Assembly (NCBI GenBank): GCA_019912885.1
Contig: JAIOHV010000140.1
Location: forward strand, 23,706-87,705
Length of the DNA: 64,000 nucleotides
From: a bacterium
Lineage (GTDB): Bacteria > Lernaellota > Lernaellaia > JACKCT01
Direction of reading: 5' to 3'
Below are positions 1,573-30,974 of the stretch, in pieces. The translations under genes were made by a program, and so were the position numbers. The notes beneath the pieces are model-generated. The model was given only the letters and a program-made list of their open reading frames with translations. It had not been told where the DNA came from and ran no database searches. Position 1 is the stretch's first letter, and each line of letters begins with the position of its first letter.

Positions 1573-1584
1573 GGAGGAACCGCC

Positions 1585-1983: not shown

Positions 1984-1989
1984 GGGGAT

Positions 1990-2816: not shown

Positions 2817-2936
2817 AATAGCGCCGCTTTTCGCGCCGAAAAACTTCTCAAATACAAGCAGTTAAAGCCCACATTCGCCTTGACTTCCCCGCCCCCCGAA
2901 GCGATGTGTTTGACCACTTGAAAGGGGGCATTGTCG

Positions 2937-3890
2937 ATGGAACAATCTGGATCAGAGAATCCCAAGCACACGCTGCGCACCCTGCGCTTCGGCGTCGAGA
3001 TCGAACTCGTGATGATCTCCCGCGAGCGCGCGGCCAAGGCGGTCCAAGCGGTGGTCGGCGGCGCGGCCGCGTATCGCGGCTACGTCGATGGCCTCGATAC
3101 CTGGGTGGTCGATGACGCTCGTGGTCGCACATGGAAAATCGTATCCGACGCCTCGCTCACGAACGCGCCCGCGCACCTGCGCGTCGAGGTCGTCACGCCG
3201 ATCCTCGAATGGAATGATATCGCGGAACTCCAGGAGGTCGTGAGGGCGCTGAGGCAAACGGGCGGTCGCGTCAACGACCAGTGCGGAGTCCACGTCCACG
3301 TCGACGGTGCGCCCTTCGACGCCGCCGCGCTCGCCCGCCTGGTCAAGATTGTCAACAAACAGGAACGGCTGATCATCGACGCGCTCGCAGTCGACGAAGA
3401 TCGTCTGCGCCGGTACGCGAAGGCGAACAGCCAGGAGTTCGTCCAGAAGGTATCGACGCAGCGCGTCCGGTCGATGCGCACGCTAAATCGACTGTGGTAC
3501 GGGAAACACAACGGCCATCCGCAGCACTACGATCCGTCGAGATATAGAGGCCTAAATCTTCACCCGCTATGGTACGACCAATCGTTCGAACTCCGCTGGT
3601 TCAACGGATCGAACCACGCCGGGGTGATCCGCGCCTACATCGTGTTTTCGCTTGCCCTCGCGGCCAAGGCGCTCAATTCCAGGGCCGCCAGCGCCTCGCG
3701 CCGCGAATACGATCCGAACAACACTAAGTTTTGTTTCCGTGTTTTTCTGCTTCATCTCTCGCTCTCCGGCGACGAGTTCAAAAACGTCCGAAAGCACCTC
3801 ATGGCGCATCTCACCGGCAGTGCCGCATGGCGGCATGGGCGGCCGACGAAGAAGGGAAAGGGTGATGGGGCCGAGCAAGAAGCGAGATAA
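2937..3890 (+). CDS. Glutamine-synthetase-like amidoligase (Amidoligase_2-type)
   Basis: RFGVEIELV near the N-terminus, TWKIVSDASL, VEVVTPIL, CGVHVHVDG. GGGGG Shine-Dalgarno 7 nt before ATG 2937; the ORF track starts at TTG 2931. Confidence 0.75.
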   Translation: MEQSGSENPKHTLRTLRFGVEIELVMISRERAAKAVQAVVGGAAAYRGYVDGLDTWVVDDARGRTWKIVSDASLTNAPAHLRVEVVTPILEWNDIAELQEVVRALRQTGGRVNDQCGVHVHVDGAPFDAAALARLVKIVNKQERLIIDALAVDEDRLRRYAKANSQEFVQKVSTQRVRSMRTLNRLWYGKHNGHPQHYDPSRYRGLNLHPLWYDQSFELRWFNGSNHAGVIRAYIVFSLALAAKALNSRAASASRREYDPNNTKFCFRVFLLHLSLSGDEFKNVRKHLMAHLTGSAAWRHGRPTKKGKGDGAEQEAR

Positions 3891-4320
3891 AGCTGGCAGC
3901 CGCTCCACGATCCTTTTCGTCTACGGCACATTGAAGCACGGCCAGCGGAACCACGGCCTGATGCGCGAGGCACGATTCCTGGGCGAGGCCATCACCGCGC
4001 CCCACTACACGCTACTCGACCTGGGGCCGTTCCCCGGCCTGATCGCGGGCGGCAACACCGCCGTCCACGGCGAACTTTACGAGGTCGAGCCGAAACTCCT
4101 GGTGCGCCTCGACCGGCACGAGGGTGTGCCAAGGTTCTACATCCGCGAGGCCCTCCACCTGGACGGACGTGACAACGTCCAAAGCTATTTTCTGGTCGAC
4201 TCAGATCGAGTCCGAGACGGTATGCCTCTTATCGGCGGAATATGGATTCCGTCTCGCTCCACCTGGAATCCTGAAATCGGAAAAAACGGAATGACCCTCG
4301 CTGTCACATTCGTTTTCTAG
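3865..4320 (+). CDS. Gamma-glutamylcyclotransferase / AIG2-like (GGCT fold) protein
   Basis: ILFVYGTLKHGQRNH ... GELYEV ... LDRHEGVPRFYIRE. ATG 3865 lies inside the amidoligase 3' end (26-nt overlap). The upstream part of ORF 3652..4320 is out-of-frame overlap and is not counted. Confidence 0.8.
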   Translation: MGPSKKRDKAGSRSTILFVYGTLKHGQRNHGLMREARFLGEAITAPHYTLLDLGPFPGLIAGGNTAVHGELYEVEPKLLVRLDRHEGVPRFYIREALHLDGRDNVQSYFLVDSDRVRDGMPLIGGIWIPSRSTWNPEIGKNGMTLAVTFVF

Positions 4321-4401
4321 TATGATGCGCGGAAACGACCTGTAGGCGCTGAATACTTCCCAGGATTTTCACGCTGGCCATGCGCCACGACAGGGCTAGG
4401 C

Positions 4402-4434
4402 TTGCTCGTTTGCGAGCGGCTTTTCCTTTGTTTG
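4402..4434 (+). terminator. Weak hairpin + T-rich tract after the GGCT gene
   Basis: Stem gctcg/cgagc (4404-4408 / 4413-4417) with a tttg loop and flanking G-U pairs, followed by cttttcctttgtttg. Confidence 0.3.
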
Positions 4435-4465
4435 TCGATGGATTTCGTTTTGGGGACAGACGCTG

Positions 4466-7400
4466 ATGGCCCAGAAAACTCTTGACCCGATATCGATTCC
4501 TCGCGTGGGCATGATGGCCACGCTGCGGAACCGCCGGGCGCTCGTGGCTTCCGTGGAACCGTTTGATGCCGGTCCTGACGGTCGCCTTCACCTTGTTCGC
4601 GTCGAGTACACCGACCTTGACGGCGTACCGGAAGACGCCGTGCTTTGGGAACGCGAACAAGGCGCGACGCTACTGGAGCCGACAACCCTTCCGCAAGTTT
4701 CCGGCAGCGCGCCAATGATCCACGCTGAATACGACGCCTTGCTTCGGGCAACCCGCTGGAGCGCGATCACACCGTTCTTGAGTCCTGACGGCTCCGGAGA
4801 ACTGTCCGAGTTGCCGATATCCTCACCGTTTCACGGCGCGATCCAGGTTGATGACTTCCAATTGGTGCCGCTCCTGCAGGCGCTACAGATGCCACGAGTG
4901 TCTCTGCTGCTGGCCGACGACGTCGGCCTCGGCAAGACCATCGAAGCGGGCCTCGTCCTTACGGAACTCCTGATTCGGCGGCGCATCCGACGCGTCTTGA
5001 TCATCTGCCCGGCGTCGCTGCGAAACCAGTGGCGGCAGGAGATGGAGCAAAAATTCGCGCTGTCCTTCGACATCGTCGACCGGCCAGAAACCCACGCACT
5101 CCAGAAGCGCCTTGGTTTGCACGCCAATCCTTGGCGCGTCTTTCCACGCGTCGCCACGTCCTACCATTACCTGCGCCAACCCGACGTGCTGGAACAGTTT
5201 CTTTCCACTTGCCGTCCGACCGATCCGGACGCGCCGCTCGCTGCGCAGCTTCCCTGGGATCTGCTCGTCGTCGACGAGGCCCACAACCTGATGCCCTCGA
5301 ACTTCGGCGACGACAGCGACCTGACGAAGATGTTGCGTAGCATCACCCCATACTTCGAGCACAAACTCTTCCTGACCGCGACGCCGCACAACGGACACAC
5401 GCGGTCGTTTTCAGGTCTTCTGGAACTGCTCGACCCGGTTCGCTTCACCCAGACAAGCGATTTCAGCGATGACGAAAAGGCCCGTGTCGAGACGGTGGTC
5501 GTTCGACGCCTCAAGCGCGAGATCAACGAACTGGACGACCGCCTGAAACGGCCTCGTCGTTTTGCAGAACGCTACTTGGTTCCGGTCCCACTCTACTTCC
5601 ACCGGGAGGAAAAGCTCCTGGCCGAAGCAGTCGAGTCGTTCCGTAAAAAGGTCAAGACGCTGATCGCCGCCTCAAGCCGGACGGAACAATTGGCCGGATC
5701 GTTTGCGGTCGAGGTTCTGAACAAGCGATTGCTGTCCTGCCCCTATACCTTTGGCGAATCCTGGTGTCGATTCAAAAACGGACTCTCCGAAGAGGAAGCT
5801 GCCGATTCTGAAGAGGTCGCGGCCGCCAAGCGCGCCAGCGAAGCAGACATCGACGACGACCGGGAGCGTGAAGATCGAACGCGCCATGCGGTGCGAACTG
5901 TCGGCGCGTGGTTGAAGCCTCTGGTAACCACGCTGCAGGAACACATCAGTGCCATCGATACAACGCTACAGCATCTCGGTATCGCTTGGCGCGACGACTC
6001 GCCCACCGATCCCAAAAAGGACAGCCGCCTGGACCGAGTCATCGAACTGATCAACAAACACCTGCGGCGCGACCGGCAGTGGCTCGATGATGAGCGCCTG
6101 GTCATTTTTACGGAATACAAGACGACGCTCGACTACCTCGAACGACGCTTGAAGGCAGCCTTCGAGGACGACGGTGAACGCATCCGTATTCTGTATGGCG
6201 GCATGGATCAGGCTGACCGCGATTTGATCCGCGACGCTTTCAATGACCCCAACGACCCGATCCGAATTCTGATCGCTACGGACGCGGCCTCGGAAGGTCT
6301 GAACCTGCAAGAGACCGCCCGCCTGATGCTGCATTTCGACATCCCCTGGAACCCGTCGCGTCTTGAGCAACGCAACGGCCGCCTGGACCGACATGGTCAA
6401 GCGCGGGACGTGAGCGTCCATCACTTCGCCAGCGAAGACGACGCCGATCTCAAGTTCCTTGGGCACGTGGTGAAGAAAGTGGAAACCATCCGAGAGGACC
6501 TCGGATCGATGGGCGAGGTTTTTGATGCAGCGTTCGCCCGCCGATTCGTCGACCTGGAGGACTCGGATCGAGTCATTAGCGGCCTCGACCGCGATGTGGA
6601 GACGAACCGCAATCGCGCCGAGGTGCCCCGGAAAAAAAACATGTCGACCGGCGAGCAGGAAAAGAGCCGCCTCGAACAGATGTGCCGCGAGATCGATCTC
6701 ACTCCGGAGACGCTTCGCTCCACGCTTGAAATCGCACTTGGCCTCGGGATCGGAATGCGCTGTTTGGAAGGGCCGGACGAACGAGGACGGTTCAAGCTTG
6801 GTCATCGGCCGCCAAAGTGGGAATCACTGATTAACGATTCCGTTCGCTTGAAAGGCAAGAGCGGTGTTCCCGGCCCTATGCCCGGTCTCATTTTCGATCC
6901 TCTGCTATTCGTCCAAAGGAACAATGGGCGCCCGGTTTTCAGGCCTGCCAAGGACACCGTGCTCCTTCATCTGGGACATCCGATGTTCCGGCATGCGCTC
7001 GTCACCTACGCCCGAGCGCGTTTTCCGGGGGCTGGGGGCGATTTCGCCGCGAGCCGATGGTGTGTGCGGCATGGCGATGTTCCGGCAGGAACCGATGCCT
7101 TGGTCCTGCTGACCGTGGAAGAACTGGGCGTCAACGAATTGCGCGAGCCGTTTCACCATTGGGTTCGCACGATCCAGATTCCAGTCAAGGGCGGCGAACT
7201 TAAAAATCCTCTGCCCCATGTTGTTCCGGCGGCCTGTTCCAGCGGAGCCGCTCCTGCGGGTGATCGAGCCGTAAAGCGAGCAAAGGACCTTTGGGAGGAG
7301 ATCGATCCCGACCTCGCCACGATGTTGAAGTCCGAAACCGAACGCTTGACCACCCTCGTTCGGGCGCACATGGAGAAGCGATTCAAGGTCGCCGCTGTCG

Positions 7401-7741
7401 AGGAGAAGAAGACCTTCGATCATCGCCAGAAAGAGATCGAGCGGCTGATGAGTGAGAACAACATCAAGAAGCTCGAAAAAGAACGCGACAAGCTCCTTGC
7501 CGTGATGAAGCAGCAGGAATTATTCGCGCCACAGGTGCGCGACCAAGAGGAGCGCCTGCGTGACCTGGAAGAGGAATTGAAGAGGCGGCGCAGCCACTAC
7601 CAGGATTTGCTCGACCGTCTCAAGATCGAACGTAAGCGGGTCCTGGAGCAGATCCTGCCCCAGCGATACAGCCTGCGTGGGAAGGTCCAGGTTTTCCCCG
7701 TTGCCGTGGAGATTCTCTTACCGAGGGAGGTTCGGCCATGA
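4466..7741 (+). CDS. SNF2-family helicase (DISARM DrmD-like)
   Basis: LADDVGLGKTIEAG (motif I), LLVVDEAHNL (II), LFLTATPHNG (III), ILIATDAASEGLNLQ (V), WNPSRLEQRNGRLDRHGQ (VI). Coiled-coil-rich C-terminus. Stop overlaps the next start (ATGA 7738-7741). Confidence 0.85.
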   Translation: MAQKTLDPISIPRVGMMATLRNRRALVASVEPFDAGPDGRLHLVRVEYTDLDGVPEDAVLWEREQGATLLEPTTLPQVSGSAPMIHAEYDALLRATRWSAITPFLSPDGSGELSELPISSPFHGAIQVDDFQLVPLLQALQMPRVSLLLADDVGLGKTIEAGLVLTELLIRRRIRRVLIICPASLRNQWRQEMEQKFALSFDIVDRPETHALQKRLGLHANPWRVFPRVATSYHYLRQPDVLEQFLSTCRPTDPDAPLAAQLPWDLLVVDEAHNLMPSNFGDDSDLTKMLRSITPYFEHKLFLTATPHNGHTRSFSGLLELLDPVRFTQTSDFSDDEKARVETVVVRRLKREINELDDRLKRPRRFAERYLVPVPLYFHREEKLLAEAVESFRKKVKTLIAASSRTEQLAGSFAVEVLNKRLLSCPYTFGESWCRFKNGLSEEEAADSEEVAAAKRASEADIDDDREREDRTRHAVRTVGAWLKPLVTTLQEHISAIDTTLQHLGIAWRDDSPTDPKKDSRLDRVIELINKHLRRDRQWLDDERLVIFTEYKTTLDYLERRLKAAFEDDGERIRILYGGMDQADRDLIRDAFNDPNDPIRILIATDAASEGLNLQETARLMLHFDIPWNPSRLEQRNGRLDRHGQARDVSVHHFASEDDADLKFLGHVVKKVETIREDLGSMGEVFDAAFARRFVDLEDSDRVISGLDRDVETNRNRAEVPRKKNMSTGEQEKSRLEQMCREIDLTPETLRSTLEIALGLGIGMRCLEGPDERGRFKLGHRPPKWESLINDSVRLKGKSGVPGPMPGLIFDPLLFVQRNNGRPVFRPAKDTVLLHLGHPMFRHALVTYARARFPGAGGDFAASRWCVRHGDVPAGTDALVLLTVEELGVNELREPFHHWVRTIQIPVKGGELKNPLPHVVPAACSSGAAPAGDRAVKRAKDLWEEIDPDLATMLKSETERLTTLVRAHMEKRFKVAAVEEKKTFDHRQKEIERLMSENNIKKLEKERDKLLAVMKQQELFAPQVRDQEERLRDLEEELKRRRSHYQDLLDRLKIERKRVLEQILPQRYSLRGKVQVFPVAVEILLPREVRP

Positions 7742-10700
7742 CGACCGCGATCTCCCGCGAGCGAGCATGGTGGGTTTCGCTGAAGCATGGCGGCCTTCTC
7801 ATCGCACCGTCAAAGCTGGCTGAGTTCTTCCCCGAGGATATCGATCCGCTTCCGAAATACGTCATCGAGCGCCTGCGCCGGGATGTTACGAGACTTCAGA
7901 GCGGCGAGGATAAATACCTTCCGACGCTCTTCGACACGCTCGTTGAACACGTCCTCGGCTATCCGAAAAACCAGTGGACTAAAGGCAGCGTCGTCGATAC
8001 CAAGTGGTCGCGCCGAGCGATTACCGGTGAGATCGTCAAACCTCGCTACCTGTGGCAGGACGCTTCAGGAGAAATCCTGCCCGTATTCGTTGCCGACGCC
8101 GCGTTGGGTGCTGGGCACGATCACGAGACGGTGAGTCGCCTGGGTATCGGTCGCGGTCGCCGCTCGGTATCGCGTGTCATCGAGTGGCTTCGCCATACGG
8201 GCGAGAAGATCGCCCTGCTGACGAACGCTCGCCAATGGCGATTGATCCATGCGGGCGCGGACTACGACGCTTGGTGCGAGTGGGACATCGACTTGTGGTT
8301 TGAAGAGGGTGCGCCGGGTTCCCAGGTGACGGCGCTGCGTCAACTCCTCGGCGTGGACGCGCTTAAGAAGCGCTCGGCTGACGAACCATCACGCCTACTC
8401 GCGGCGATCCAGGCTTCCCGCAAAGGCCAAGCGGAACTGAGCAGCGCACTTGGCGAGCGGGTGCGCCAGGCGGTCGAACATCTCGTTCACGCATCGAGCG
8501 AAGCCCTCAACGTGTTTGAAGGCAATGCTCCGACCCCTGAAACGCGACGCGCCATTTACATTGCCGCCACGCGGCTCATCATGCGTTGCGTTGTCGTGCT
8601 TTTCGCCGAAGCCAGGGAATTGCTGCCTCGCAACAATCCTATCTACAACGACTCCTACGGATTACAGGGCCTGCGCGAACAACTGGATCGGCTTGCCGGT
8701 GGACGCGGCCCAGAACGGCTTCGACATTCCTGGGGCGCGTGGCCGAGGATCATCTCACTGTTTCGGCTGATCTTTTCCGGTTCCGGCCACGAGGCGCTGC
8801 CGATCCAGCGTTACGGCGGCGGTCTTTTTACACCGGGCGATCCGAATGCTGACGATTCGACATCAAGGGCCCTGGCCGCATTGGAGAACCAGAAGGACTG
8901 TCCCAGCGACGCCGACGCGCATCGGATTTTGGAACTGCTGTGCCACAGCAAGGTGAAGGTTCGCCAAGGGCGCGGCAGCACTTGGGTACCCGTTCCGGTG
9001 GACTTTTCCGATCTGTCCTCCGAATACATCGGCATACTCTATGAAGGCTTGCTCGACTTCGAGTTGCGTCGCGCCGAGACCGATGCGCCTATCGTGTTCT
9101 TGAACATCGGCGACCAACCGGCACTGCCCTTCTCGCGTTTGGAGGCAATGGATGACAGCGGACTTTCTTCGCTCCTGTCCAAGCTGAAGGTCTCCACGAA
9201 GAAGATGGCTTCCGAGGAAGAGTCCGAGGAAGGCGGTGACGAGGGTGAGGACGAGGGCGAAGAGGAGGAGATCGAAGCCGAGAGCGCAGACGACGACGAA
9301 CCTGTCGAGGAACTCGATGTCGACCAAGCGATCCGCGATGCGGTGTTTGGTTGGGCCGAGCGCGCCGTCAAGGCTGCGAAGATCGTCAAGGCGCCCAAGG
9401 GTAAAAAAGAAGGCCGCGCTAAGGCGGAATACGAGGAGCACGTTGGGAAGGCCGCAAGAGGGCTTGTTGGGCGAATCATTCCACCCGGCGACTGGTATCT
9501 GGTTCGTTGGGGCGGAACTCGCAAGGGCGCGGGCACGTTCTACACGCGGCCGCAACTGGCGGTTCCGACGACGCGCCGGACCCTGCAACCGCTGGCCTTT
9601 GATGTAGGCTCGGACGGTCAGGCCGTTCCCAAGAAACCCGAGGATATCCTGGCGCTCAAGGTCTGCGATCCGGCGATGGGCAGCGGTTCCTTCCTGGTCG
9701 CTGCCTTACGCTTCATCACCGACGCACTGCTGGTGAGCCTCCATCACCACGGGCGACTCGAAGAAACTGTGGGGCGAACAATCTGCCGTCTGGCCGACGG
9801 TGTACCGCTCGACCACCCTTCACAGGAATCGTTGCCCGTACCGAAAGACCATCCAGAATTCGAGGACCGTCTGCGCGCCCGACTCAAGCGCCACGTCGTC
9901 GAACGATGCATCTACGGCGTCGACCTCGACCCTCTGGCGGTCGAACTGGCGCGCATGGCGCTCTGGATCGAGACGATGGATCAGCGGCTGCCGTTCAGCT
10001 TCCTCGATCACAAGATCAAATGCGGCAACAGTCTGGTGGGATGCTGGTTCGACCGCTTCCAGGAATACCCGGCGATGGCCTGGGAGCGACAGGGTGACGA
10101 ATGGACCGATGCCATCAAGCAATTCAAAAACACGAAGGTCAAACCGGCCTTGGCCGCTTGGATCAAGGCGCGTCGGGAAGACGTTCTGCCCTTCATGAAA
10201 AAAGGCTTCACGCTCGACGATCTGCATCGAGACGCGGTGCGCGTGTTTGAGGAATTGCATGCGCTGCCGGTGCAAGAGACCGAGCGGCGCGAGACGATCT
10301 ATCGAGAGCATATCCTGGCGAACGAGGAGTTTTCACGTCTAAAGTCGGCGTTCGACACGTGGTCCGCCGTCTGGTTCTGGCCGGGGGACCAACTGAACCT
10401 CGCTCCGATGCCAAGGGATTTTGTTGCTCCTTCCAAATCCACAATGGACATGGTGCGAAGCCTGACTGCTCACCATCGGTTCTTCCATTGGGAGTTGGAG
10501 TTTCCGGATGTATTTTCGGGACCGAAATCCGGATTCCATGCGCTGATCGGCAACCCGCCGTGGGAAATCCAGAAGCCGAACTCGAAAGAGTTTTTCTCGA
10601 ACATCGACCCTTTGTACCGAGCCTACGGCAAGCAAGAAGCTCTCGCCAAGCAGCGTGAATTCTTTGCCAGCAATTCCGACCTCGCGCGGAATTGGCTGAT

Positions 10701-12747
10701 CTACAGTGCCCAACTAAAGGCACTTTCAAACTGGACGAAGCACTCCGCGTTCCCATTCGGCGACGTAAAGGAGGGCGGTGATAAACTCTCGTTCTCCAGG
10801 TCGACAACTGACAATGTCAGCCTGCACGATAGCTGGCGCAAGCAACGCCAGGGAAGGAAAGGCTATTCGGACCCGGAACACCCCTACCGGCACCAGGGAT
10901 CGGCAGACATCAATACGTACAAGATGTTCCTTGAAATCGCGCACGCTCTCGCGGCAAGCGGCGGGCAGTTCGGATTCCTCGTACCATCAGGCGTCTACAC
11001 CGACAAAGGCAGCACAAGCCTTCGGCAATTGTTCCTGACCAAGTGCGAGTGGCTGTGGCTGTTTGGTTTTGAAAACCGTGAAGGGATCTTCGACATCCAC
11101 AGGTCGTTCAAGTTCTGCCCGGTAATCGTGAAGAAGGGCGGCTCGACCAAGGCAATCCGCGCCACGTTCATGCATCGCTCTCTGGAGGACTGGGAGGACG
11201 CGGAGCGGCACGTGCTCGCCTATCCGCGTGAACGCGTTGAGCAGTTCAGCCCGAAATCCAAAGCGATTCTTGAAATCCGGACTGAGCGCGATTTGGAAAT
11301 TCTGGAGAAGCTCTACGCCAAGGGAGTGTTGCTCGGCGACGATAGTCCGGATGGGTGGGGAATCAAATACGCCACTGAGTTCCACATGACCAACGACTCA
11401 AAGCTCTTCCCGCCGACGCCCAAGTGGGAGGAGCAAGGGTATCGACCCGACGAATACGGTCACTGGCTCATGGGCAAGTGGAAGCCCTACGACGGTCCGA
11501 GATCGATCTTGAATAGGAAGAAAGGGTTGGTCCTCTCGTGTGATGGAACTCAGACCATTTATGTGGACGAGATCGAGGACGTCGCGTTACCGCTGTACCA
11601 GGGTGTAATGATCGGGCAGTTCGATTTTGCGGCCGCAAGATATCTAAGCGGTGCCGGAAATAGGGCACATTGGGAGCCCCTTAGCTGGGAGGAGAAACGC
11701 CTGGCCCCCCAGTTCCTCATGGCCGCTGAGACGATCTTCGAGAAGAACGGCGGCGGGTTACGTGGATGCAAGCTCGGCTTCCGAGATATCTCGAATGCGA
11801 CCAACGAACGCACATTTATCACTTCTGTCGTGCCGGATGTTCCATGCGGGAACACGCTTGGGATACTACGCACCGACCGCGAGCGACCACTCGGGCTCGC
11901 GGTGGCGCTCACGAGTCTAGCTTGTGACTGGGCGACCCGACTGCGCATGGGCGGCATGCACCTCAACCTCTTCGTGATTGAAGACGTACCTGTCTTGCGT
12001 CCCGGCTGGTCGGACCAACATCGCCGCCTGCCGGTTCTCGGCGCAAGTTTGGCCTTCGGCCATCTCATTTTCGCCCACGAGTGGTTGACCCTGTCGATGG
12101 CCGAACGATGCCACCCGTGGAAGGCGCTCTGGGCCGTCACGCTCCATGAACGCCTCCGATTTCGAAGCATCGTTGACGCAGTTGTTGCTGACCTTTATGG
12201 CCTCACCTCTTGGGACTTGGCTTGGATCATCCGCGATTGCGACAACCCGGCGGCAGTGATGCATTCGGACGACTTCACACGTGCTCTCGATCCCAAGGGC
12301 TTTTGGAGAGTCGACAAAGAGTGTGACCCGGAACTGCGACATCCCGTTTTAGCGTATGTCGCCTTCTGCGACCTGAAAGAAAAAGGGCTGGATGCATTCC
12401 TCTCGCAGAACGATGGCGAGGGTTGGATGATTCCAGAGAAGTTGCGGCTCGCAGACTATGGACTTGGCCACGACGACCGCGCCAAGGAATACCAACCCGT
12501 GGCGTCTCGGCTAGGTGACCGGTTTTTGCCCTGGCAGCTTGAGCAATCTGTCGAAGAATCGTGGGAGGAATGCGAGCGGCACGCCGAGCTAATCGAGAGG
12601 ATCGTGCCGCGACCAAAGCCCTCTCAAACGGCAGTGCCAACGGCAGGTTCGAGAAGTGACGCACCCAAGGACCTGTTTGGAAATCCGGAACCGACTGACC
12701 TATTTGGAAAAGTCGTTGAACCGACGCGGAAATCCCGGAGGAAATGA
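7738..12747 (+). CDS. Very large N6-adenine(/N4-cytosine)-class DNA methyltransferase (DISARM DrmMI-like / type IIG-like)
   Basis: 1669 aa. SAM-binding VCDPAMGSGSFLVAAL, catalytic LIGNPPWE, long N- and C-terminal extensions and an acidic insert at 9211-9318. Translationally coupled on both sides. Confidence 0.85.
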   Translation: MTTAISRERAWWVSLKHGGLLIAPSKLAEFFPEDIDPLPKYVIERLRRDVTRLQSGEDKYLPTLFDTLVEHVLGYPKNQWTKGSVVDTKWSRRAITGEIVKPRYLWQDASGEILPVFVADAALGAGHDHETVSRLGIGRGRRSVSRVIEWLRHTGEKIALLTNARQWRLIHAGADYDAWCEWDIDLWFEEGAPGSQVTALRQLLGVDALKKRSADEPSRLLAAIQASRKGQAELSSALGERVRQAVEHLVHASSEALNVFEGNAPTPETRRAIYIAATRLIMRCVVVLFAEARELLPRNNPIYNDSYGLQGLREQLDRLAGGRGPERLRHSWGAWPRIISLFRLIFSGSGHEALPIQRYGGGLFTPGDPNADDSTSRALAALENQKDCPSDADAHRILELLCHSKVKVRQGRGSTWVPVPVDFSDLSSEYIGILYEGLLDFELRRAETDAPIVFLNIGDQPALPFSRLEAMDDSGLSSLLSKLKVSTKKMASEEESEEGGDEGEDEGEEEEIEAESADDDEPVEELDVDQAIRDAVFGWAERAVKAAKIVKAPKGKKEGRAKAEYEEHVGKAARGLVGRIIPPGDWYLVRWGGTRKGAGTFYTRPQLAVPTTRRTLQPLAFDVGSDGQAVPKKPEDILALKVCDPAMGSGSFLVAALRFITDALLVSLHHHGRLEETVGRTICRLADGVPLDHPSQESLPVPKDHPEFEDRLRARLKRHVVERCIYGVDLDPLAVELARMALWIETMDQRLPFSFLDHKIKCGNSLVGCWFDRFQEYPAMAWERQGDEWTDAIKQFKNTKVKPALAAWIKARREDVLPFMKKGFTLDDLHRDAVRVFEELHALPVQETERRETIYREHILANEEFSRLKSAFDTWSAVWFWPGDQLNLAPMPRDFVAPSKSTMDMVRSLTAHHRFFHWELEFPDVFSGPKSGFHALIGNPPWEIQKPNSKEFFSNIDPLYRAYGKQEALAKQREFFASNSDLARNWLIYSAQLKALSNWTKHSAFPFGDVKEGGDKLSFSRSTTDNVSLHDSWRKQRQGRKGYSDPEHPYRHQGSADINTYKMFLEIAHALAASGGQFGFLVPSGVYTDKGSTSLRQLFLTKCEWLWLFGFENREGIFDIHRSFKFCPVIVKKGGSTKAIRATFMHRSLEDWEDAERHVLAYPRERVEQFSPKSKAILEIRTERDLEILEKLYAKGVLLGDDSPDGWGIKYATEFHMTNDSKLFPPTPKWEEQGYRPDEYGHWLMGKWKPYDGPRSILNRKKGLVLSCDGTQTIYVDEIEDVALPLYQGVMIGQFDFAAARYLSGAGNRAHWEPLSWEEKRLAPQFLMAAETIFEKNGGGLRGCKLGFRDISNATNERTFITSVVPDVPCGNTLGILRTDRERPLGLAVALTSLACDWATRLRMGGMHLNLFVIEDVPVLRPGWSDQHRRLPVLGASLAFGHLIFAHEWLTLSMAERCHPWKALWAVTLHERLRFRSIVDAVVADLYGLTSWDLAWIIRDCDNPAAVMHSDDFTRALDPKGFWRVDKECDPELRHPVLAYVAFCDLKEKGLDAFLSQNDGEGWMIPEKLRLADYGLGHDDRAKEYQPVASRLGDRFLPWQLEQSVEESWEECERHAELIERIVPRPKPSQTAVPTAGSRSDAPKDLFGNPEPTDLFGKVVEPTRKSRRK

Positions 12748-15700
12748 GCGTGCTGAATCCGATTACATACACGGAAAAAGTGGTCAGCGATTTTCTGAAA
12801 TATCAATTCACGACCTACCAGCTTGCCGACCGCGATCTGAATGCCCAAATGCGGCGCCTTCTGAGCTTGGAAGAAACCCGCGCGACGCCACTGATGAAAG
12901 GTCCATACATCAGCCTGAGCCGGTCGTTTCGCAAAGGCGCAAAGGTCGCGGCCTTGATCGCAGAAGGGCTGCTGCATCCTCACATGGCCAGTCTTGTTCC
13001 ATTCCAGAACGTCTATGGGCACCAGGAAACGGCTATCCGAGAGATCGCCAAACGACAGTCAACATTGATCTCGACGGGAACCGGGTCTGGGAAAACCGAG
13101 TGCTTTTTGTACCCCATTATCAGTCGGTGCCTGAAGCTACGGGATGAAAACGCGGCCGAGGGAATTCTTGCGGTCATTGTCTATCCGATGAACGCACTGG
13201 CTGAAGACCAGTTGGGGCGTCTGCGAGACCTGCTGACAGGCACTGGCATCTCATTTGGAATGTACGTTGGCAAGACGCCCGAACACAAAGCGGATGTGGC
13301 GGGGGCCAGACTTCCGGCAGGTTCGTCACGCGCCGATTATCAGGCGAAACTTAAGCAGCTTCGGGAGCAAAAGGACTCGCGGGCTGTTCATCCGTCCGAG
13401 GAGAGCACATCGCGTGAGGAAATGCGCATGCCGGGCAAGCAGCCTCGCATTCTGCTGACGAACGTGAAGCAGCTTGAATTGCTCCTCACGCGGCATCAGG
13501 ACGTGGAGCTATTCGACAACGCTCGCCTCGAATTCTTGGTGTTCGACGAGGCGCACACATTCGCTGGAGCGGCAGGCGCGGAAACCGCTTGCTTGATCCG
13601 CCGCCTCCGCGCTTTCTGCGGCAAGGGACCGAAAGACACGGTGTGCGTCGCCACTTCAGCAACCATCGCCGATCCTGTTCGAGGACCGGATGCCGGACGC
13701 GCATTTGCTTCGCGGTTTTTCGGCGTTGAACCCGACAACGTCTCGCTGATCGGCGAGGAGTACGAGGAAGATACCTGGGCTAAAACCCGCACGCCAAGCG
13801 CGCCATTACCCGGCGATCCGGTTGTTCAGTTGCAGACAGTCTTGGACGCGATCTTCGAACTGGAAAAGACCCCGCCGTCCAAGGACGCCGTGAAGATGCT
13901 GCGTGGAGTTTTCCAGGCGATGACCGGTGCCGCACTCGATCCAACGAAATGGCACCAGAGCCTTTACGACAGGCTCGCCGCGAACGAGATCGTGTTCCAG
14001 ATCGCCGAAGCCCTCAAGGAACCTCGTGCGTTGTTGAAACTCGTCGAGGATCTGACAGCGCGACTCGGGCGTCCCGTTCCGGTCGAGGAGATTCTCACCT
14101 GGTTGGCGCTCGGTGCCGCGTCGCGCAGCGAGGATGAACGGCCGCTATTGCGGCCCGTGGTTCACTGTTTTGTCCGTGGCGTCAGTGGGGCGGTTGTGAC
14201 GTTCCCGCCCGATGAACAGCTGCCGCGCCTCTGGTTGTCCGCTGAAGACGCCGCCGAAAAGGAAGGGAGCCTGTTCCGCCTTCAAGCGACGACCTGCACC
14301 ACTTGCGGCCAACACTACTTCGTCCATTTCGTCAAGGATTTCGATCTGAGCGGGAAGACCCCTGGAGGTGGTGAGGCGAAGGAAGATCGATTCTACTGGC
14401 CGCCTCTCGATCAAGCCCTCAACGGCAGTCGAGTGGTCTTGCTGGATCGATTGGCCCTTGGTGAAGATGACGACGAGGACAACGATATCCCACGTAAAAG
14501 CACACCGCTTTTCTTCTGCCGATATTGCGGCACGCTTCACCCAAAGAAAATTGATCGGTGCGACGGCTGCGGCCGCGAAGGCGATTTGGTCGGCCTATTC
14601 GCTGTCTGGCAGGACAAGGACAATCCAGGATATCTCTCCAGGTGTGTCGCCTGCGGCTCACTGGGGCGACGGTATCTGGGGACCTACCGTGAACCGGCCC
14701 GCCCGATCCGTGCGTTGACCGTATCCGATGTCCACGTCTTGGCCCAGAGCATGATCCAGCACGCCGTGCGCAAGCGCCTTCTGGTATTTGCCGACAACCG
14801 ACAGGACGCCGCGTTCCAGGCCGGGTGGATGCAGGATCACGCCCGTCGGTTCCGTCTGCGTTCGCTGATGTACCAACAAATTGAGAAGGGACCGATTTCC
14901 ATCGGGGATCTGACAGCGCATCTTGATCGGCTCCTTGATCTGGACGACGACCTCTCGGCGGCGCTGATTCCCGAAGTCTGGCGCGTGGCGCGGAAGGAAG
15001 CCACGGGCCTTGAACACGCCCGCGAGCGAAAACGGTTTCTGCGTATCCAGATCTTGCGAGAAATCACCACAGGAGCGCGCCAACGCATCGGTCTTGAGCC
15101 GTGGGGCCGCATCCGCGTGGAATACGTGGGGTTGGACGCTAACCTTGACTTCTTTCAAAGGTGGGCACCGGAAACTGGATGCACACCAGAGGAGCTTCTG
15201 GCGGGTGTCGCTGCGCTTCTCGACGTCGCGCGGCGCAATCGCGCACTTCTCGACCGCGAGGACCAGGTCTTCAGTAAGATTTGGTTTGAAGGCGACCGCG
15301 AAGTGCAATACGGCTATCTGCCGATTCTGAAAGGCGGTCCCAAGGGACTGAAGCTCCGATACGAAGCGAATGACGAACGTAGCCGAATCATCCAGTGGTT
15401 GGGTCAGCGAGCGGGTACGGCGGCACGTCAGGCCGCCAAGAACTGGGGCGTCCCCGACGATAAGATCAAGGAATTCTTTGAAGAACTCTGGCGCTTGCTC
15501 ACCGACAAGCTTCGCCTGTTGGCGAGCGTGACGCTCGTCGGCCGCCGAAACAATGCGCTGCCCGGATGCGCGGACGTCAAGCAAATAGATGCTGACCGGT
15601 TACTGATCCACGCGAACAAGGGCGTCTATCGGTGCGATGTCTGTCGTAGGCCAAACGTCCGAAAGACACCGCATTCGGCCTGCATGGTGTTTCGATGCAG

Positions 15701-17576
15701 CGGCACCTTGAAGTTCGAGGACGAGGACTCGGACAATTACGACCTGATGGTGTTGGATCAGCAGTTCAGCATGATTCGCCCGCGCGAGCATTCGGCACAG
15801 ATCCCTGCATCGGATCGAGAACTCATCGAGCGGATGTTCAAGGGGGATGGCGAGCGGCTCAACACCCTAGTCTGCACGCCCACATTGGAACTCGGGGTCG
15901 ACATCGGTGCCCTGGATTCGGTATTGATGCGGAATGTCCCGCCTCTCCCCGCCAATTACTGGCAGCGTGCCGGTCGCGCCGGTCGGCGGCACCGCATGGC
16001 CGTGAACATGACCTACGCCCGCCCCGCAAGTCACGACCGGGCTTATTTCGTCGATCCGATGAAGATGCTCAACGGCCGCATTCTGCCGCCAAGCTTCAAC
16101 CTAAAAAACGGCGTGATGATTCAGAAGCACGTCCACGCCTCGGTCCTCACTGTTCTCCACGGCCTGGCCAAATCGGGGCGCGCCTTGCCGGAACCCGACC
16201 GGACTGAACTCGCGGCCGCACTGGATCATTGCTTTCCCGCGCAGATCAAAGCCTACCTTTTCGATGATAGTGGAAATGTTCGATCTGAGCCGTTCGATTT
16301 AACCCTGTTCGCCCAGGCGCTAGTAAAGCATAGGGCGCACGTCCTGGATCATGTTCGCACGGTGTTCGCGCAGGGCTGGCCGGTCGCGGATTCCAACGTC
16401 GTCGAGGCATCGGTACTGGAGGGATATGTCGACGGCATGGGCGAGGCGCTAAAAAACGTGCTCGTCCGACTGAGCAAACGGCTCCATTGGGCGTTGGAAC
16501 AATTGAGTCGTTTGGATTCGGTACGACACAGAAAAGGAACGCTCGATCCCGAAGAGGATGCGCTCCGCAATCGCTGTGACCGCCTCGTCAAGAAGCTCAA
16601 AGGGATAAGTCGCAAGAAGCGGCGCGAGGCCGAGGGCTACGACGACACCTACACCTACTCTGTATTGGCGGCCGAGGGGTTCTTGCCGGGGTATGGCCTC
16701 GATACAGGCTCGGTTGTCGGATTCTATCTGGCCCCGCCGTTCGCTTCGGACATTCGGAACTGGGAACTGCGGCGAAGCCAATCGCTTGCCCTACACGAGT
16801 ACATTCCGGGAAATCTGATATACGCGAACGGCCATCGCTTCCTGCCAAGGTTTTTCCACCTCGAGCCCGTAGAGCCGTTACTCTTTCAGGTCAGTAGCGC
16901 ACAGGAAGCTATCCGAGAGGTCGGCACGGCAACGGATGGTGCAACATCGACGTTGGCGACCGCCGCGTTGAAGGCGGTGCCGATCTGCGATGTCGATCTT
17001 CCGCACAACTCCCACATCACGGACGAAGAGGACTACCGATTCCAACTCGGTGTCGCGGTCTATGGATACGAGCAGGCACGACACGAGGGTGGAAAATCGT
17101 TCACTTGGGGGCCGAAGGCCGTTACTTATCGCTCGGGCGTTTTCTTGCGATTAGTCAACGTCGGCGTGGCGAACCAAGTTCGCTCGGGCAATGGTCTGGG
17201 CTATCCGGTCTGCCGAATCTGCGGCCAGAGCCGTTCGCCGCTGGCCTCCCACGCCGATCTCGACCAGTTTGCGAAAGACCATCAGGAGCGGTGCGGCGCT
17301 CCCGTGGAAAGCATCGGTTTCTATGCCGACATCGTGGCGGATGCGATCTGTCTGCAAGATTGCGCCGACCGCGAAGAAGCCTTCAGCGTCATGGAAGCAC
17401 TGCGCAAAGGTGCGGCCCACGTGTGGAAATGGAGATCGGCGATTTGCAGTTGCTCGCCATCGGGCGACCGGGTGACGAAAAACTCGACATTCTCCTTTAC
17501 GACCCAATGCCGGGTGGGTCGGGACTTCTCGAACAGATGTTGGGGCGGTGGAACGAGGTCATCGATGCGGCGTTGA
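12744..17576 (+). CDS. DEAD/DEAH helicase fused to DUF1998 (DrmA+DrmB-like / DruE-like), upstream part of a frameshifted gene
   Basis: STGTGSGKTECF (I), LVFDEAHTF (II), SATI (III), TPTLELGVDIG and YWQRAGRAGRR (V/VI). Zn-ribbon-like CxxC pairs lie in the inter-lobe insert. DUF1998-type elements are GFLPGYGLD and YPVCRICGQ. The last ~50 codons (after 17424) read as nonsense. Confidence 0.85.
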   Translation: MSVLNPITYTEKVVSDFLKYQFTTYQLADRDLNAQMRRLLSLEETRATPLMKGPYISLSRSFRKGAKVAALIAEGLLHPHMASLVPFQNVYGHQETAIREIAKRQSTLISTGTGSGKTECFLYPIISRCLKLRDENAAEGILAVIVYPMNALAEDQLGRLRDLLTGTGISFGMYVGKTPEHKADVAGARLPAGSSRADYQAKLKQLREQKDSRAVHPSEESTSREEMRMPGKQPRILLTNVKQLELLLTRHQDVELFDNARLEFLVFDEAHTFAGAAGAETACLIRRLRAFCGKGPKDTVCVATSATIADPVRGPDAGRAFASRFFGVEPDNVSLIGEEYEEDTWAKTRTPSAPLPGDPVVQLQTVLDAIFELEKTPPSKDAVKMLRGVFQAMTGAALDPTKWHQSLYDRLAANEIVFQIAEALKEPRALLKLVEDLTARLGRPVPVEEILTWLALGAASRSEDERPLLRPVVHCFVRGVSGAVVTFPPDEQLPRLWLSAEDAAEKEGSLFRLQATTCTTCGQHYFVHFVKDFDLSGKTPGGGEAKEDRFYWPPLDQALNGSRVVLLDRLALGEDDDEDNDIPRKSTPLFFCRYCGTLHPKKIDRCDGCGREGDLVGLFAVWQDKDNPGYLSRCVACGSLGRRYLGTYREPARPIRALTVSDVHVLAQSMIQHAVRKRLLVFADNRQDAAFQAGWMQDHARRFRLRSLMYQQIEKGPISIGDLTAHLDRLLDLDDDLSAALIPEVWRVARKEATGLEHARERKRFLRIQILREITTGARQRIGLEPWGRIRVEYVGLDANLDFFQRWAPETGCTPEELLAGVAALLDVARRNRALLDREDQVFSKIWFEGDREVQYGYLPILKGGPKGLKLRYEANDERSRIIQWLGQRAGTAARQAAKNWGVPDDKIKEFFEELWRLLTDKLRLLASVTLVGRRNNALPGCADVKQIDADRLLIHANKGVYRCDVCRRPNVRKTPHSACMVFRCSGTLKFEDEDSDNYDLMVLDQQFSMIRPREHSAQIPASDRELIERMFKGDGERLNTLVCTPTLELGVDIGALDSVLMRNVPPLPANYWQRAGRAGRRHRMAVNMTYARPASHDRAYFVDPMKMLNGRILPPSFNLKNGVMIQKHVHASVLTVLHGLAKSGRALPEPDRTELAAALDHCFPAQIKAYLFDDSGNVRSEPFDLTLFAQALVKHRAHVLDHVRTVFAQGWPVADSNVVEASVLEGYVDGMGEALKNVLVRLSKRLHWALEQLSRLDSVRHRKGTLDPEEDALRNRCDRLVKKLKGISRKKRREAEGYDDTYTYSVLAAEGFLPGYGLDTGSVVGFYLAPPFASDIRNWELRRSQSLALHEYIPGNLIYANGHRFLPRFFHLEPVEPLLFQVSSAQEAIREVGTATDGATSTLATAALKAVPICDVDLPHNSHITDEEDYRFQLGVAVYGYEQARHEGGKSFTWGPKAVTYRSGVFLRLVNVGVANQVRSGNGLGYPVCRICGQSRSPLASHADLDQFAKDHQERCGAPVESIGFYADIVADAICLQDCADREEAFSVMEALRKGAAHVWKWRSAICSCSPSGDRVTKNSTFSFTTQCRVGRDFSNRCWGGGTRSSMRR

Positions 17577-18160
17577 AGTTCGTCCGGGAATGCCCGGCGG
17601 AATGCGCGCGGGCGTGTGTTGACTGCTTGCTGCAGTTCCGCAACGCTTTCTACCACCGCTATTTGAATCGCCAACTCGCGGTCGAGCGGCTGTCTGATTG
17701 GGGCGCAAGCCTTGCTTATTCTCATGATCTGCCGCCGCGTCTGCCTGATGAACCATCGACGGAGATGCCCGTCAACCAGGCCGAAAAAGCGCTAAAGGCG
17801 ATGTTGGAACGCGCGGGTTTCCACGGCTTTAAGGCTCAACATCCCATCGATCTCGGACGACCGCTTGGGACGACGACGCCGGATTTCTTCATCGAAGATC
17901 CGACCGGGGCAAGAGAAGGCATCTGCATTTACCTCGACGGCATGAGCAAGCACATCCACGGTAATCCGAGGACCCTGAAAAAGGATCGGGAAATTCGAGA
18001 TGAACTGCGCGGTCGGGCCTATGAGGTGATCGAAATACCTTATGGGCATCTAACGGACCTAGAAGCGATGCGCCGTCACTTCTATCGTCTCGGAAGAATT
18101 CTCGCTGGCCGCGAGATGGCGGATAGAATCCGCGACAACGAAAATTGGTTCAAAACATGA
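17429..18160 (+). CDS. C-terminal continuation of the same helicase gene (rest of DUF1998 + Vsr/DUF559-like nuclease fold) in another frame
   Basis: EMEIGDLQLL..LLYDPMPGGSGLLEQM..CPAECARACVDCLL continues the DUF1998 domain, then TTPDFFIED...ICIYLDGMSKHIHG...DREIRDELRGRAYEVIEI. Only the part of ORF 17105..18160 after ~17423 makes sense. Confidence 0.7.
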   Translation: MEIGDLQLLAIGRPGDEKLDILLYDPMPGGSGLLEQMLGRWNEVIDAALKFVRECPAECARACVDCLLQFRNAFYHRYLNRQLAVERLSDWGASLAYSHDLPPRLPDEPSTEMPVNQAEKALKAMLERAGFHGFKAQHPIDLGRPLGTTTPDFFIEDPTGAREGICIYLDGMSKHIHGNPRTLKKDREIRDELRGRAYEVIEIPYGHLTDLEAMRRHFYRLGRILAGREMADRIRDNENWFKT

Positions 18161-18191
18161 AAATTTACCCGTGGGTACTGGAGGATTTCTG

Positions 18192-30446: not shown

Positions 30447-30486
30447 ATTCGGCGCGCGATTTTTTCGCCGTCGATCGGGAGTACAC

Positions 30487-30918: not shown

Positions 30919-30974
30919 GTGCGCGTCGCACGGATGACCTGTCACCGGATGCCGGATCCCGGTAGCCTTCCGTC

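Follow-up and report, generated by a model that had tools for sequence, protein, structure and literature searches.

A probable Type I ARMADA anti-phage operon of three genes, with a frameshift in the helicase-nuclease gene

Introduction

ARMADA was defined in September 2025 as a system related to DISARM and Druantia, with a Vsr nuclease on its helicase, and was presented as a "missing link" between the two (Bell et al. 2025, bioRxiv 10.1101/2025.09.15.676423). The phage-defence experiments on ARMADA cited here concern Type II, and the activity of Type I is a prediction. Type II gives direct, non-abortive protection for which all genes, the Walker motifs and NPPW are needed (Bell et al., 10.1101/2025.09.15.676423), and this protection has been confirmed in EHEC. 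Some Type I systems, many of them from archaea and cyanobacteria, have a reversed gene order (Bell et al., 10.1101/2025.09.15.676423). Here we compare with these systems an operon found in a 64-kb stretch of bacterial DNA, referred to as the window, to which all coordinates refer.

Results

Three coupled genes in a recurrent order

Three genes on the forward strand, encoding an SNF2 helicase, an N6-adenine methyltransferase and a helicase-DUF1998-nuclease, occupy positions 4466-18160 (Table 1); we refer to them as armA, armB and armC. An open reading frame scan returned 4466-7741 (1091 aa), 7738-12747 (1669 aa) and 12744-17576 (1610 aa), the last overlapped by a fourth frame at 17105-18160. 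Neighbouring genes share ATGA overlaps at 7738-7741 and 12744-12747, the second preceded by GGAGGA. The translational coupling of the three genes given in a preliminary description of this DNA was reproduced to the exact coordinate, and every motif quoted there was located at its position. The leader upstream of armA, which is kept in the alignment of the two closest relatives (loci L001 and L005), contains a terminator-like hairpin at 4400-4419 (hairpin scan); it presumably also holds a putative promoter, and any regulatory role is likewise presumed.

Table 1. Features of the operon and their positions in the window
Feature	Position	Strand	Description
Leader	4290..4465	+	5' of armA; kept in the two closest relatives (L001 and L005 alignment); putative promoter (presumed)
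armA	4466..7741	+	1091 aa, intact; SNF2/RapA-like translocase, DrmD/BrxHII type
armA motifs	4916-4939; 5273-5287; 5375-5395; 6377-6400	+	DDVGLGKT; DEAHN; TATPHNG; GRLDRHGQ
armB	7738..12747	+	1669 aa, intact; N6-adenine DNA methyltransferase, PglX/DrmMI/Type IIG-like
armB motifs	9667-9696; 10552-10563	+	DPAMGSGSFL; NPPW
armC 5' part	12744..17423	+	frame 0; reading frame continues out of frame to a stop at 17576
armC helicase motifs	13077-13100; 13542-13556; 13656-13664; 15963-15989	+	GTGSGKTE; FDEAH; SAT; QRAGRAGRR
armC helicase core	13077-13100; 13545-13556; 15963-15989	+	YprA-family DExH: Walker A; DEAH; motif VI
armC first DUF1998 Cys pair	17211-17228	+	CRICGQ
Frameshift site	17421..17429	+	one base short relative to all relatives (..CAC GTG / xTG GAA ATG..)
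armC 3' part	17426..18160	+	frame +2; second half of MZB/DUF1998 and C-terminal nuclease
armC Cys cluster	17591-17626	+	CPAECARACVDC
armC nuclease domain	~17771-18157	+	predicted Vsr-like PD-(D/E)xK nuclease; AlphaFold, Foldseek, invariant residues

In 48 of the 53 related loci with enough flanking sequence, ArmA and ArmB lie upstream of ArmC with strand and order preserved; three more keep ArmB with ArmA falling beyond the locus edge. The survey that had been proposed, of SNF2 and DrmMI-like methyltransferase genes alongside a fused helicase-DUF1998, finds the combination recurring across many phyla; the order reaches Myxococcota, Acidobacteriota, Pseudomonadota, Verrucomicrobiota, Chloroflexota and Bacillota.

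ArmA and ArmB

ArmA matches Pfam SNF2-rel_dom (8e-20) and Helicase_C, the PADLOC models for DrmD (7e-209, 694.6 bits over residues 10-1088) and BrxHII (262 bits), and NCBIfam DISARM_DrmD (703.6 bits; cut-off 610). Its nearest solved relatives are RapA chains (4e-34), and it shares 87% identity over its full length with the orthologues in L001 and L005. ArmB carries a SAM motif (DPAMGSGSF), the catalytic NPPW and Eco57I/N6_Mtase domains (Pfam Eco57I methylase, 1.2e-19). Its strongest PADLOC match is REase_MTase_IIG (1551 bits), with DrmMI at 447 bits (4e-134). In a profile over 45 orthologues its conservation is lowest at about residues 1300-1450, which we presume from the sequences to be the target-recognition region. 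The class 1 DISARM partners named in the preliminary description are therefore as it had read them: an SNF2 helicase of DrmD type is encoded by gene 1, and a methyltransferase of DrmMI/PglX type by gene 2.

Given its top PADLOC match, gene 2 could also be read as a stand-alone Type IIG restriction-modification enzyme that happens to lie between two unrelated helicase genes. The ATGA overlaps and the gene order, which 48 of 53 loci from different phyla share, make this extremely improbable, and so do the requirement for every gene in Type II ARMADA and the N-terminal region of ArmB, where sequence conservation among the 45 orthologues revealed no invariant D...ExK. The pairing of an SNF2 protein with a large N6-adenine methyltransferase also resembles BrxHII and PglX of BREX. 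Nevertheless, the NCBIfam BREX PglX models match ArmB weakly and below threshold (27-29 bits; cut-offs 500-900), and the open reading frames scanned on either side of the operon contain no PglZ, BrxC, BrxA or BrxB.

ArmC is a fused helicase with a predicted C-terminal nuclease

The third gene is frameshifted in the given sequence, as had been noted. Frame 0 ends in ...GAAHV and frame +2 resumes with EMEIGDLQ..., and because relatives read GAAHVLEMEI unbroken, the sequence lacks a single base at about 17424-17425. Repair yields an ArmC of 1805 aa, in agreement with the earlier claim that helicase and DUF1998 form one DruE-like polypeptide of roughly 1800 aa. ArmC is a single unbroken match in nearly all of 83 related loci. 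Over 100 homologues, 1800-1990 aa in length, have the same fusion, so it is neither local nor an artefact.

Profile searches with ArmC returned Pfam DEAD (1e-22), MZB/DUF1998 (1.6e-9) and PADLOC DruE3 (1e-106); like those of ArmA and ArmB, these domain matches lie well outside what chance would give. RecA1 and RecA2 are separated by a helical insert (about residues 359-459) and a beta-rich Zn module holding four conserved CxxC pairs (518-637), followed by a helical region and two further Cys pairs (964-985); the predicted secondary structure runs, in the order expected for ARMADA, helical (359-459), beta-rich (471-654) and helical (659-831). These inserts are seen at the level of secondary structure; in ARMADA a BrxA-like helical insert, a Zn-binding beta-barrel and a MarR-like domain are expected there. 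The structure model of ArmC covers 1200 aa, with low confidence in the RecA2 core, and its best Foldseek matches are to MrfA (6znq/6znp/6zns; 4e-10). A phmmer search against the PDB gave a 2108-aa DEAD/DEAH helicase (9tu7; 2e-55) and then YprA/MrfA (1e-29). The former is probably Druantia DruE, which would make Druantia the nearest solved relative.

Past the break, the 3' part contains DPMPGGSG, the Cys cluster and a Pfam MZB match (1.2e-9), and ends in the predicted nuclease domain. The AlphaFold model of this domain has a pLDDT of 80.6, and across 56 sequences its invariant residues are D (17882-17884), D (17936-17938) and H (17957-17959). Its best Foldseek matches are TnsA, the I-Bth0305I catalytic domain (3r3p; target TM 0.71), VRR_NUC, REase-like folds and 3ijm, with weak E-values (0.04-0.1), probabilities of 0.98-1.0 and one fold class throughout; Pfam Vsr gave no match in the domain. 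Bell et al. (2025, bioRxiv 10.1101/2025.09.15.676423) likewise report chain 3r3p for the ARMADA nuclease. The different nuclease fold that had been suspected at the C-terminus is therefore of PD-(D/E)xK/Vsr-like type by AlphaFold and Foldseek.

Comparison with DISARM and Druantia

Class 1 DISARM (DrmD, DrmMI, DrmA, DrmB, DrmC) shares with this operon the DrmD-type SNF2 protein, the DrmMI-like methyltransferase and a DUF1998-bearing helicase core. Here, in contrast, helicase and DUF1998 are one polypeptide from a different YprA clade, the PLD protein DrmC, frequent but not universal in DISARM, is absent, and the nuclease is a fused Vsr-type domain. The absence of a PLD gene, stated earlier, extends to the whole window: no HKD/PLD motif occurs in any open reading frame of the 64 kb, and Pfam found no PLD among the flanking ones. 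The operon could still be a class 1 variant that arose by fusion of drmA with drmB and loss of drmC, a reading favoured by an ArmA score above the NCBI DISARM DrmD equivalog cut-off and by the DrmMI match of ArmB. We consider it very unlikely. The PADLOC models for DrmA cover no more than the generic helicase-C motif region (3e-17, whereas DruE3 reaches 1e-106), and no DrmA or DrmB chain in the PDB matches at E<=0.001, where 9tu7 and MrfA do. Fusion is ancestral in a large conserved clade, and all relatives are fused; split drmA and drmB genes with a drmC, which had been considered as a possible state of the relatives, are not what they show. Bell et al. (10.1101/2025.09.15.676423) moreover group these helicases with Druantia, not with DISARM.

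With type III Druantia (DruH-DruE) the operon shares a YprA-family helicase of giant size that carries Zn modules and, fused at its C-terminus, a nuclease; by PADLOC HMM match DruE is the nearest characterised helicase. The differences are that DruH is missing, the nuclease is PD-(D/E)xK rather than PLD, and the partners are an SNF2 protein and a methyltransferase. That the locus is a type III-like Druantia with unusual partner genes would agree with the DruE3 and DruE1 models being the best PADLOC matches of the helicase and with 9tu7 being its nearest solved sequence, yet it is extremely improbable: E. coli DruE aligns in just three short segments, at about 25-40% identity, the DruE3 model (2055 positions) is matched in parts only, and the window lacks both DruH (tblastn with E. 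coli DruH gave a chance-level match elsewhere in the window, E 0.13) and any match to the PLD C-terminal region of E. coli DruE. Searches with PADLOC, NCBIfam and tblastn found no complete DISARM or Druantia gene set; the presence of one was a case that, according to the preliminary description, would overturn its view.

Probable assignment to ARMADA Type I

As judged by similarity to the proteins in Table S1 of Bell et al., the locus is very probably a Type I ARMADA anti-phage system with the order armA-armB-armC and without ArmD. Across 100% of its length, repaired ArmC shares 60-62% identity with MCC6316615, MDA2923350, MCL4298959 and HHV61974, all given there as "ARMADA Type I helicase", as are the contigs of the related loci L042, L060, L063, L080 and L081. 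Identity to most of the surveyed related loci, several of them Type I in Table S1, is 56-65%. The components are those of Type I: a BrxHII/RapA-like SNF2 protein, a PglX-like methyltransferase, and a YprA-like helicase to which OB-CON-DUF1998 and a Vsr-type nuclease are fused, with the SNF2 and methyltransferase genes ahead of the helicase in what Bell et al. call the reversed order; this copy differs in its frameshifted armC.

Type II ARMADA (armABCD of E. coli NCTC 12900, ATCC 8739 and EDL933) has the same armA, armB, armC order and domain logic, but places ArmD (RelE-like plus GajB/UvrD-like helicase) directly after armC. No ArmD was detected in the window by tblastn with an ArmD homologue (best E 0.77), and SIR2 and HerA genes follow armC instead. 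Identity to the E. coli Type II proteins is low (ArmA 28%; ArmB 23% in the methyltransferase core; ArmC 25-33%, the last in two segments of E. coli Sakai ECs_5263), and their ArmC exceeds that of the window by about 300 aa and includes additional nuclease-like domains that are inactive. The proposal of an undescribed subtype between DISARM and Druantia does not stand, as the same architecture and argument had already appeared as ARMADA and close homologues of the helicase are Type I in Table S1 (Bell et al. 2025).

Bell et al. ascribe ArmD to Type II, whereas about a quarter of the relatives surveyed here (14 related loci) carry an ArmD-like gene, which suggests that ArmD and the A-B-C order are less type-specific than described. 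The clade, spread over at least 8 bacterial phyla, also has optional C-terminal add-ons, such as a Peptidase_S24-like domain. It is conceivable, if rather unlikely, that the clade of the window is a distinct ARMADA subtype, with a Type I helicase, a Type II-like armA-armB-armC order, optional ArmD and C-terminal add-ons. Its mechanism may differ from that of the tested E. coli Type II system.

State of this copy

All 79 positions 3' of the break that are conserved at >=90% in 55 homologues are kept, with no further stops, so the frameshift appears to be either very recent or an assembly error. If real, it costs ArmC half of its Zn domain and the entire nuclease; judging from the sequence, methylation would then probably stay and restriction be lost, or this copy may be nonfunctional altogether. 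The question of whether the copy is dead concerns its functional state and is nested within the assignment to ARMADA Type I. A genuine frameshift, leaving an orphan-like adenine methyltransferase and an SNF2 protein beside an ArmC without nuclease, is a serious possibility that we nonetheless hold to be somewhat less probable than its opposite. The break is present in the sequence, other broken ArmC genes are known (one of them on the Synechocystis sp. B12 plasmid CP101713.1), and the other very long reading frames of the window (ArmA, ArmB, AcrB) are unbroken, so that the assembly is not generally error-prone. On the other hand, the preserved downstream sequence gives no sign of decay, a one-base sequencing or assembly error fits equally well, and the exact truncated product is absent from independent assemblies on record.

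Discussion

Taking the locus as Type I ARMADA, a mechanism can be proposed by analogy with the relatives of Type I. ArmA would be an SNF2/RapA-like dsDNA translocase, ArmB a PglX/DrmMI-like N6-adenine methyltransferase whose recognition region varies, and ArmC a YprA-family helicase whose motor is fused to an OB-CON-DUF1998 "canopy", with the Vsr-type PD-(D/E)xK nuclease last. ArmB would mark host DNA at a specific adenine motif, a step that we infer to separate self from non-self. ArmC would load on single-stranded or forked DNA arising from injected or replicating phage DNA and then translocate; such loading is a property of MrfA and of Druantia DruE, a helicase-coupled nuclease acting on forked or ssDNA substrates, and is reported for DISARM DrmAB. 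Unmarked DNA would be cut by the C-terminal nuclease of ArmC together with ArmA and ArmB, and direct, non-abortive immunity would result. Because tested Type II systems need the methyltransferase catalytic motif for defence, ArmB is probably part of the restriction machinery beyond being a protective methylase, like PglX in BREX; the Type II methyltransferase, too, is probably required for the defence reaction itself.

A prophage-like element has inserted in comM, and the operon lies at its end, adjoined after armC by a low-GC SIR2-HerA system. In this lineage the comM-targeting element carries the operon together with a slot after armC for a second defence system that can be swapped, a neat example of how defence systems are exchanged on mobile elements. 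The locus appears to be a real, correctly read member of the published ARMADA family, known since September 2025, and the DISARM-Druantia reasoning behind that family was here reached from raw sequence alone. For the biology of the family, the lineage offers compact three-gene examples of Type I ARMADA, with L001 and L005 as intact close relatives.

Operon structure and gene assignments

The ORF map resolves the locus into three genes, the third overlapped by a fourth ORF in a different frame. All of the motifs quoted in the preliminary description are present at the coordinates it implied, the ATGA overlaps at the gene junctions were found exactly where it had placed them, and its structural interpretation of the three-gene locus was right. 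Profile searches identified gene 1 (ArmA) as an SNF2 helicase (SNF2-rel_dom 8e-20, Helicase_C 5e-20), which matched the PADLOC DrmD model from end to end (694.6 bits) and scored 703.6 bits on the NCBI model 'DISARM system SNF2-like helicase DrmD', above its curated cut-off of 610. Gene 2 (ArmB) was identified as an N6-adenine methyltransferase (Eco57I 1e-19), scoring 447 bits on the DrmMI model and 1551 bits on the PADLOC 'Type IIG' model. Gene 3 (ArmC) encodes a DEAD/DEAH helicase whose top PADLOC matches were DruE models (1e-106), and the MZB/DUF1998 zinc domain was found on the out-of-frame fourth ORF (1.6e-9).

The leader 5′ of armA is kept in the two closest relative loci, L001 and L005. 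Within it, 46 nt before the armA start, a GC hairpin resembling a terminator is followed by a T-rich tail; this element could be the terminator of the upstream gene or a regulatory element.

Features of the defence locus and its surroundings (coordinates are those of the window)
Feature	Coordinates	Strand	Remarks
Prophage-like end	7-4320		one large and two small ORFs without matches, then amidase
Endolysin-type amidase	2283-2816
Amidoligase and gamma-glutamyl cyclotransferase pair	2931-4320		upstream of operon
Leader of armA	4290-4465		~170 nt
GC hairpin and T-rich tail	4400-4419		in leader
Gene 1 (ArmA) ORF	4466-7741	+	1091 aa
Gene 2 (ArmB) ORF	7738-12747	+	1669 aa
Gene 3 (ArmC) ORF, frame 0	12744-17576	+	1610 aa
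Fourth ORF	17105-18160	+	carries MZB/DUF1998
Invariant D, D, H	17882-17884, 17936-17938, 17957-17959		ArmC C-terminal domain
SIR2 and HerA pair	18171-21801		475 aa and about 740 aa
comM/Mg-chelatase 3′ fragment	21823-22479		after defence genes
Citrate transporter	47748-49265		chromosomal gene near transposase ORF
DDE transposase (DDE_Tnp_1) ORF	52966-54150		amid ordinary chromosomal genes
AcrB-type pump	57453-60932		chromosomal gene near transposase ORF

Assignment to ARMADA Type I

Bell et al. (2025, bioRxiv 10.1101/2025.09.15.676423) describe three ARMADA components: ArmA, a helicase of BrxHII/RapA-like type; ArmB, a methyltransferase resembling PglX; and ArmC, a YprA-like helicase that has its nearest counterpart in Druantia DruE and carries a C-terminal Vsr-type PD-(D/E)xK nuclease predicted to be active. 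Type II adds ArmD, in which a RelE-like domain and a GajB-like helicase are fused. The same authors term ARMADA a 'missing link' between DISARM and Druantia, and the earlier proposal that this locus may be an undescribed subtype has thus been overtaken by a publication that makes the same argument.

Accessions were obtained for ten ArmC homologues and then looked up in Table S1 of Bell et al. Four of them (MCC6316615, MDA2923350, MCL4298959, and HHV61974), each 60-62% identical to the window ArmC over its full length, are all entered as 'ARMADA Type I helicase', and the contigs of at least five of our surveyed loci (L042, L060, L063, L080, and L081) are likewise entered as Type I. The comparison with Type II was made against the tested system of E. 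coli O157:H7 Sakai (ECs_5261-5264, adjoining DruH/DruE), whose ArmC is 25-33% identical to the window protein in two segments and is about as distant from it as E. coli DruE. A search of the window with an ArmD homologue found nothing. Taken together, the Type I entries of the homologues, the distance of the E. coli ArmC, and the missing ArmD indicate at the sequence level that the locus is an ARMADA Type I system with reversed (A-B-C) gene order. The original observation is therefore confirmed, and the locus adds one more example to an already published family.

Fourteen related loci with an ArmC of the Type I clade (L014, L021, L022, L023, L030, L034, L040, L042, L052, L054, L060, L069, L073, and L084) also have an ArmD-like gene 3′ of it, in most of them as the next gene. 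The product combines a RelE-like N-terminus with a UvrD helicase and shares 34% identity with E. coli ArmD over the full length (E 8e-108). The helicases of the ArmD-bearing L042 and L060 were typed as Type I by Bell et al., who ascribe ArmD to Type II.

Conservation of the fused helicase and of gene order

A search of the repaired, frame-corrected ArmC against 5.8 billion proteins returned thousands of matches. The best 120 of these are 1650-2040 aa long, nearly all cover the full query at 58-88% identity, and they span Myxococcota, Gemmatimonadota, Acidobacteriota, Chloroflexota, Bacillota, and many cyanobacteria. DEAD, Helicase_C, and MZB occur in a single chain among these best 120 matches, which bears out the proposed fusion of helicase and DUF1998 and leaves no room for a merely local fusion.

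The SNF2-methyltransferase-helicase order was recovered in all three genomic contexts retrieved through exact protein matches (an 88% relative, Aerosakkonema, and a Bacillota bin). A survey with one genome per species then yielded 80 further loci, and all loci were searched with the three window proteins. Gene order was counted in the 53 loci that extend 9.9 kb or more upstream of the helicase: in 48, ArmA and ArmB precede the helicase on its own strand with their order unchanged, in 3 ArmB is kept and ArmA displaced beyond the locus edge by insertions, and in 2 neither is present. The possibility that a further conserved gene separates armB from armC was considered and rejected, as the inserts of approximately 25 loci are mutually unrelated.

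Sequenced phages contained no close relatives (best identity 31%), and one plasmid relative was found, in fragments. On the 71-kb Synechocystis sp. B12 plasmid CP101713.1 (L089), a 52%-identical ArmC at 29333-34900 is annotated as at least five successive CDS fragments with IS elements around it, a pattern that reflects either the decay of another ARMADA or poor assembly quality. The Thermus thermophilus plasmid NZ_AP025604.1 (L088) carries a distant ARMADA-like operon (ArmC identity 28%) that adjoins a type III-A CRISPR locus. Its genes for SNF2, an NYN-domain protein, and an N6 methylase are followed by two small genes in reverse orientation, the 1838-aa helicase, and a gene annotated as a 3′-5′ exonuclease.

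Domains of ArmC and ArmB

We modelled the last 244 residues of ArmC with an alignment of 55 homologues (pLDDT 80.6). PD-(D/E)xK folds ranked first in a Foldseek search against the PDB, with probabilities of 0.98-1.0 and weak E-values; the matches included TnsA, the Vsr-like catalytic domain of I-Bth0305I (3r3p, TM 0.71 on target), VRR_NUC, and a 'restriction endonuclease-like' protein. Three residues of this region, the D of PDFF, the D of YLDG, and the H of KHIHG, are invariant in 56 of 56 sequences, and no Pfam or NCBIfam model matched the nuclease domain even at E<=10. The fold agrees with the suggestion of a C-terminal nuclease other than PLD, and the reported lack of a PLD gene holds as well, since no window ORF has an HKD/PLD motif and the PLD region of DruE was unmatched. 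DruH gave a chance-level match only in the window (E 0.13).

In eight proteobacterial loci (L027, L031, L038, L045, L055, L064, L067, and L072) the ArmC frame runs on for ~180 aa directly after the Vsr domain, into a Peptidase_S24 (LexA/UmuD-like) domain (Pfam 6e-10). Many other homologues end in a different extension (roughly 100-230 aa), and the window ArmC has neither.

The helicase body was modelled over 1200 residues (mean pLDDT 75.7, with a poorly predicted RecA2 core at pLDDT <50), giving the order RecA1, helical insert, beta-rich module, further helical domains, and RecA2. Four conserved CxxC pairs (residues 518/521, 592/595, 606/609, and 634/637) fall within this body, as do two more Cys pairs (964/967 and 980/985). 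The predicted domain order and the Cys pairs are compatible with the published description of ARMADA, the inserts being compared by order only. MrfA, the founding YprA helicase, came on top in a Foldseek search with this 1200-aa model, and the other matches were generic SF2 helicases; this search cannot tell DruE from DrmA, and DruE entries are seemingly absent from the library. By sequence, the nearest solved chains are MrfA and the 2108-aa DEAD/DEAH helicase 9tu7, which we take to be probably a DruE, and no DrmA or DrmB chain was among the PDB matches of ArmC.

Across 45 ArmB orthologues, conservation peaks near the SAM and NPPW motifs and is lowest at residues ~1300-1450, as would be expected of a putative target-recognition region. 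No invariant D...ExK nuclease motif was found in the N-terminal region of these orthologues, and phmmer of ArmB against the PDB gave no match.

Genomic neighbourhood

The operon appears to form one end of a prophage-like element that inserted into comM and whose left end falls outside the window. The upstream amidoligase/cyclotransferase pair is found in L005 and L085 and is missing from L001. Beginning 11 nt past the armC stop is a SIR2-HerA anti-phage pair with a GC content of 45-48% versus about 60% nearby, which suggests recent insertion; the pair is possibly co-transcribed with ARMADA. Beyond the defence genes, the window, L001 (19553-20071), and L005 (~17000-17350) each have a 3′ comM fragment, with homology beginning at ~21990 in the window. 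What separates armC from comM varies among the three: the window has SIR2-HerA, L001 a Cap4-nuclease and an AAA_23 protein, and L005 only ~1.6 kb of sequence. The shared fragment and differing cargo point to a mobile element that inserted into comM and has an exchangeable slot after armC.

Proposed mechanism

Type II ARMADA protects E. coli directly and non-abortively, and its protection depends on all four genes, on the Walker motifs in both ArmA and ArmC, and on NPPW in ArmB. Its defence has also been confirmed in EHEC. Druantia DruE is a helicase-coupled nuclease acting on forked or single-stranded DNA intermediates. In the window system, ArmB would mark host DNA, and ArmC would load on ssDNA or forks that phage DNA exposes on entry or during replication, translocate and, with ArmA and ArmB, degrade unmarked DNA through its Vsr-type domain. 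Because NPPW is needed for Type II defence, a BREX-like part of ArmB in restriction would, by analogy, be more likely than a purely protective role.

State of armC

Read from the DNA, frame 0 of armC ends ...LRKGAAHV and frame +2 goes on EMEIGDLQLLAIGRPGDEKLDILLYDPMPGGSG..., and the closest relative reads GAAHVLEMEIDDLQ with no break at this site. The frame switch and the unbroken relative indicate that one base is missing at ~17424-17425; the repaired ArmC has 1805 aa. As ArmC is one unbroken match in nearly all surveyed loci, the window frameshift is the exception. Programmed frameshifting at 17424 was ruled out, given that there is no slippery heptamer and the relatives are all in frame. 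A search for the exact sequence of the truncated 1610-aa product found no independent record, and the sole other contig with this ArmA (Logan SRR15662001, 9.6 kb) stops short of the frameshift site.

On the window branch, dN is 0.093 downstream of the break versus 0.024 upstream (dS saturated). All three relatives also vary more in the downstream region, and we treat this rise as uninformative with regard to relaxed selection. Downstream of the break lie 79 positions with a conservation of at least 90% across the family, and the window keeps all 79, whereas other members deviate at 3.7% on average. This retention indicates, as judged from the sequence, that the lesion either arose very recently or stems from an assembly error. 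A genuine deletion would leave ArmC without the four invariant Zn-cluster Cys and the entire nuclease.
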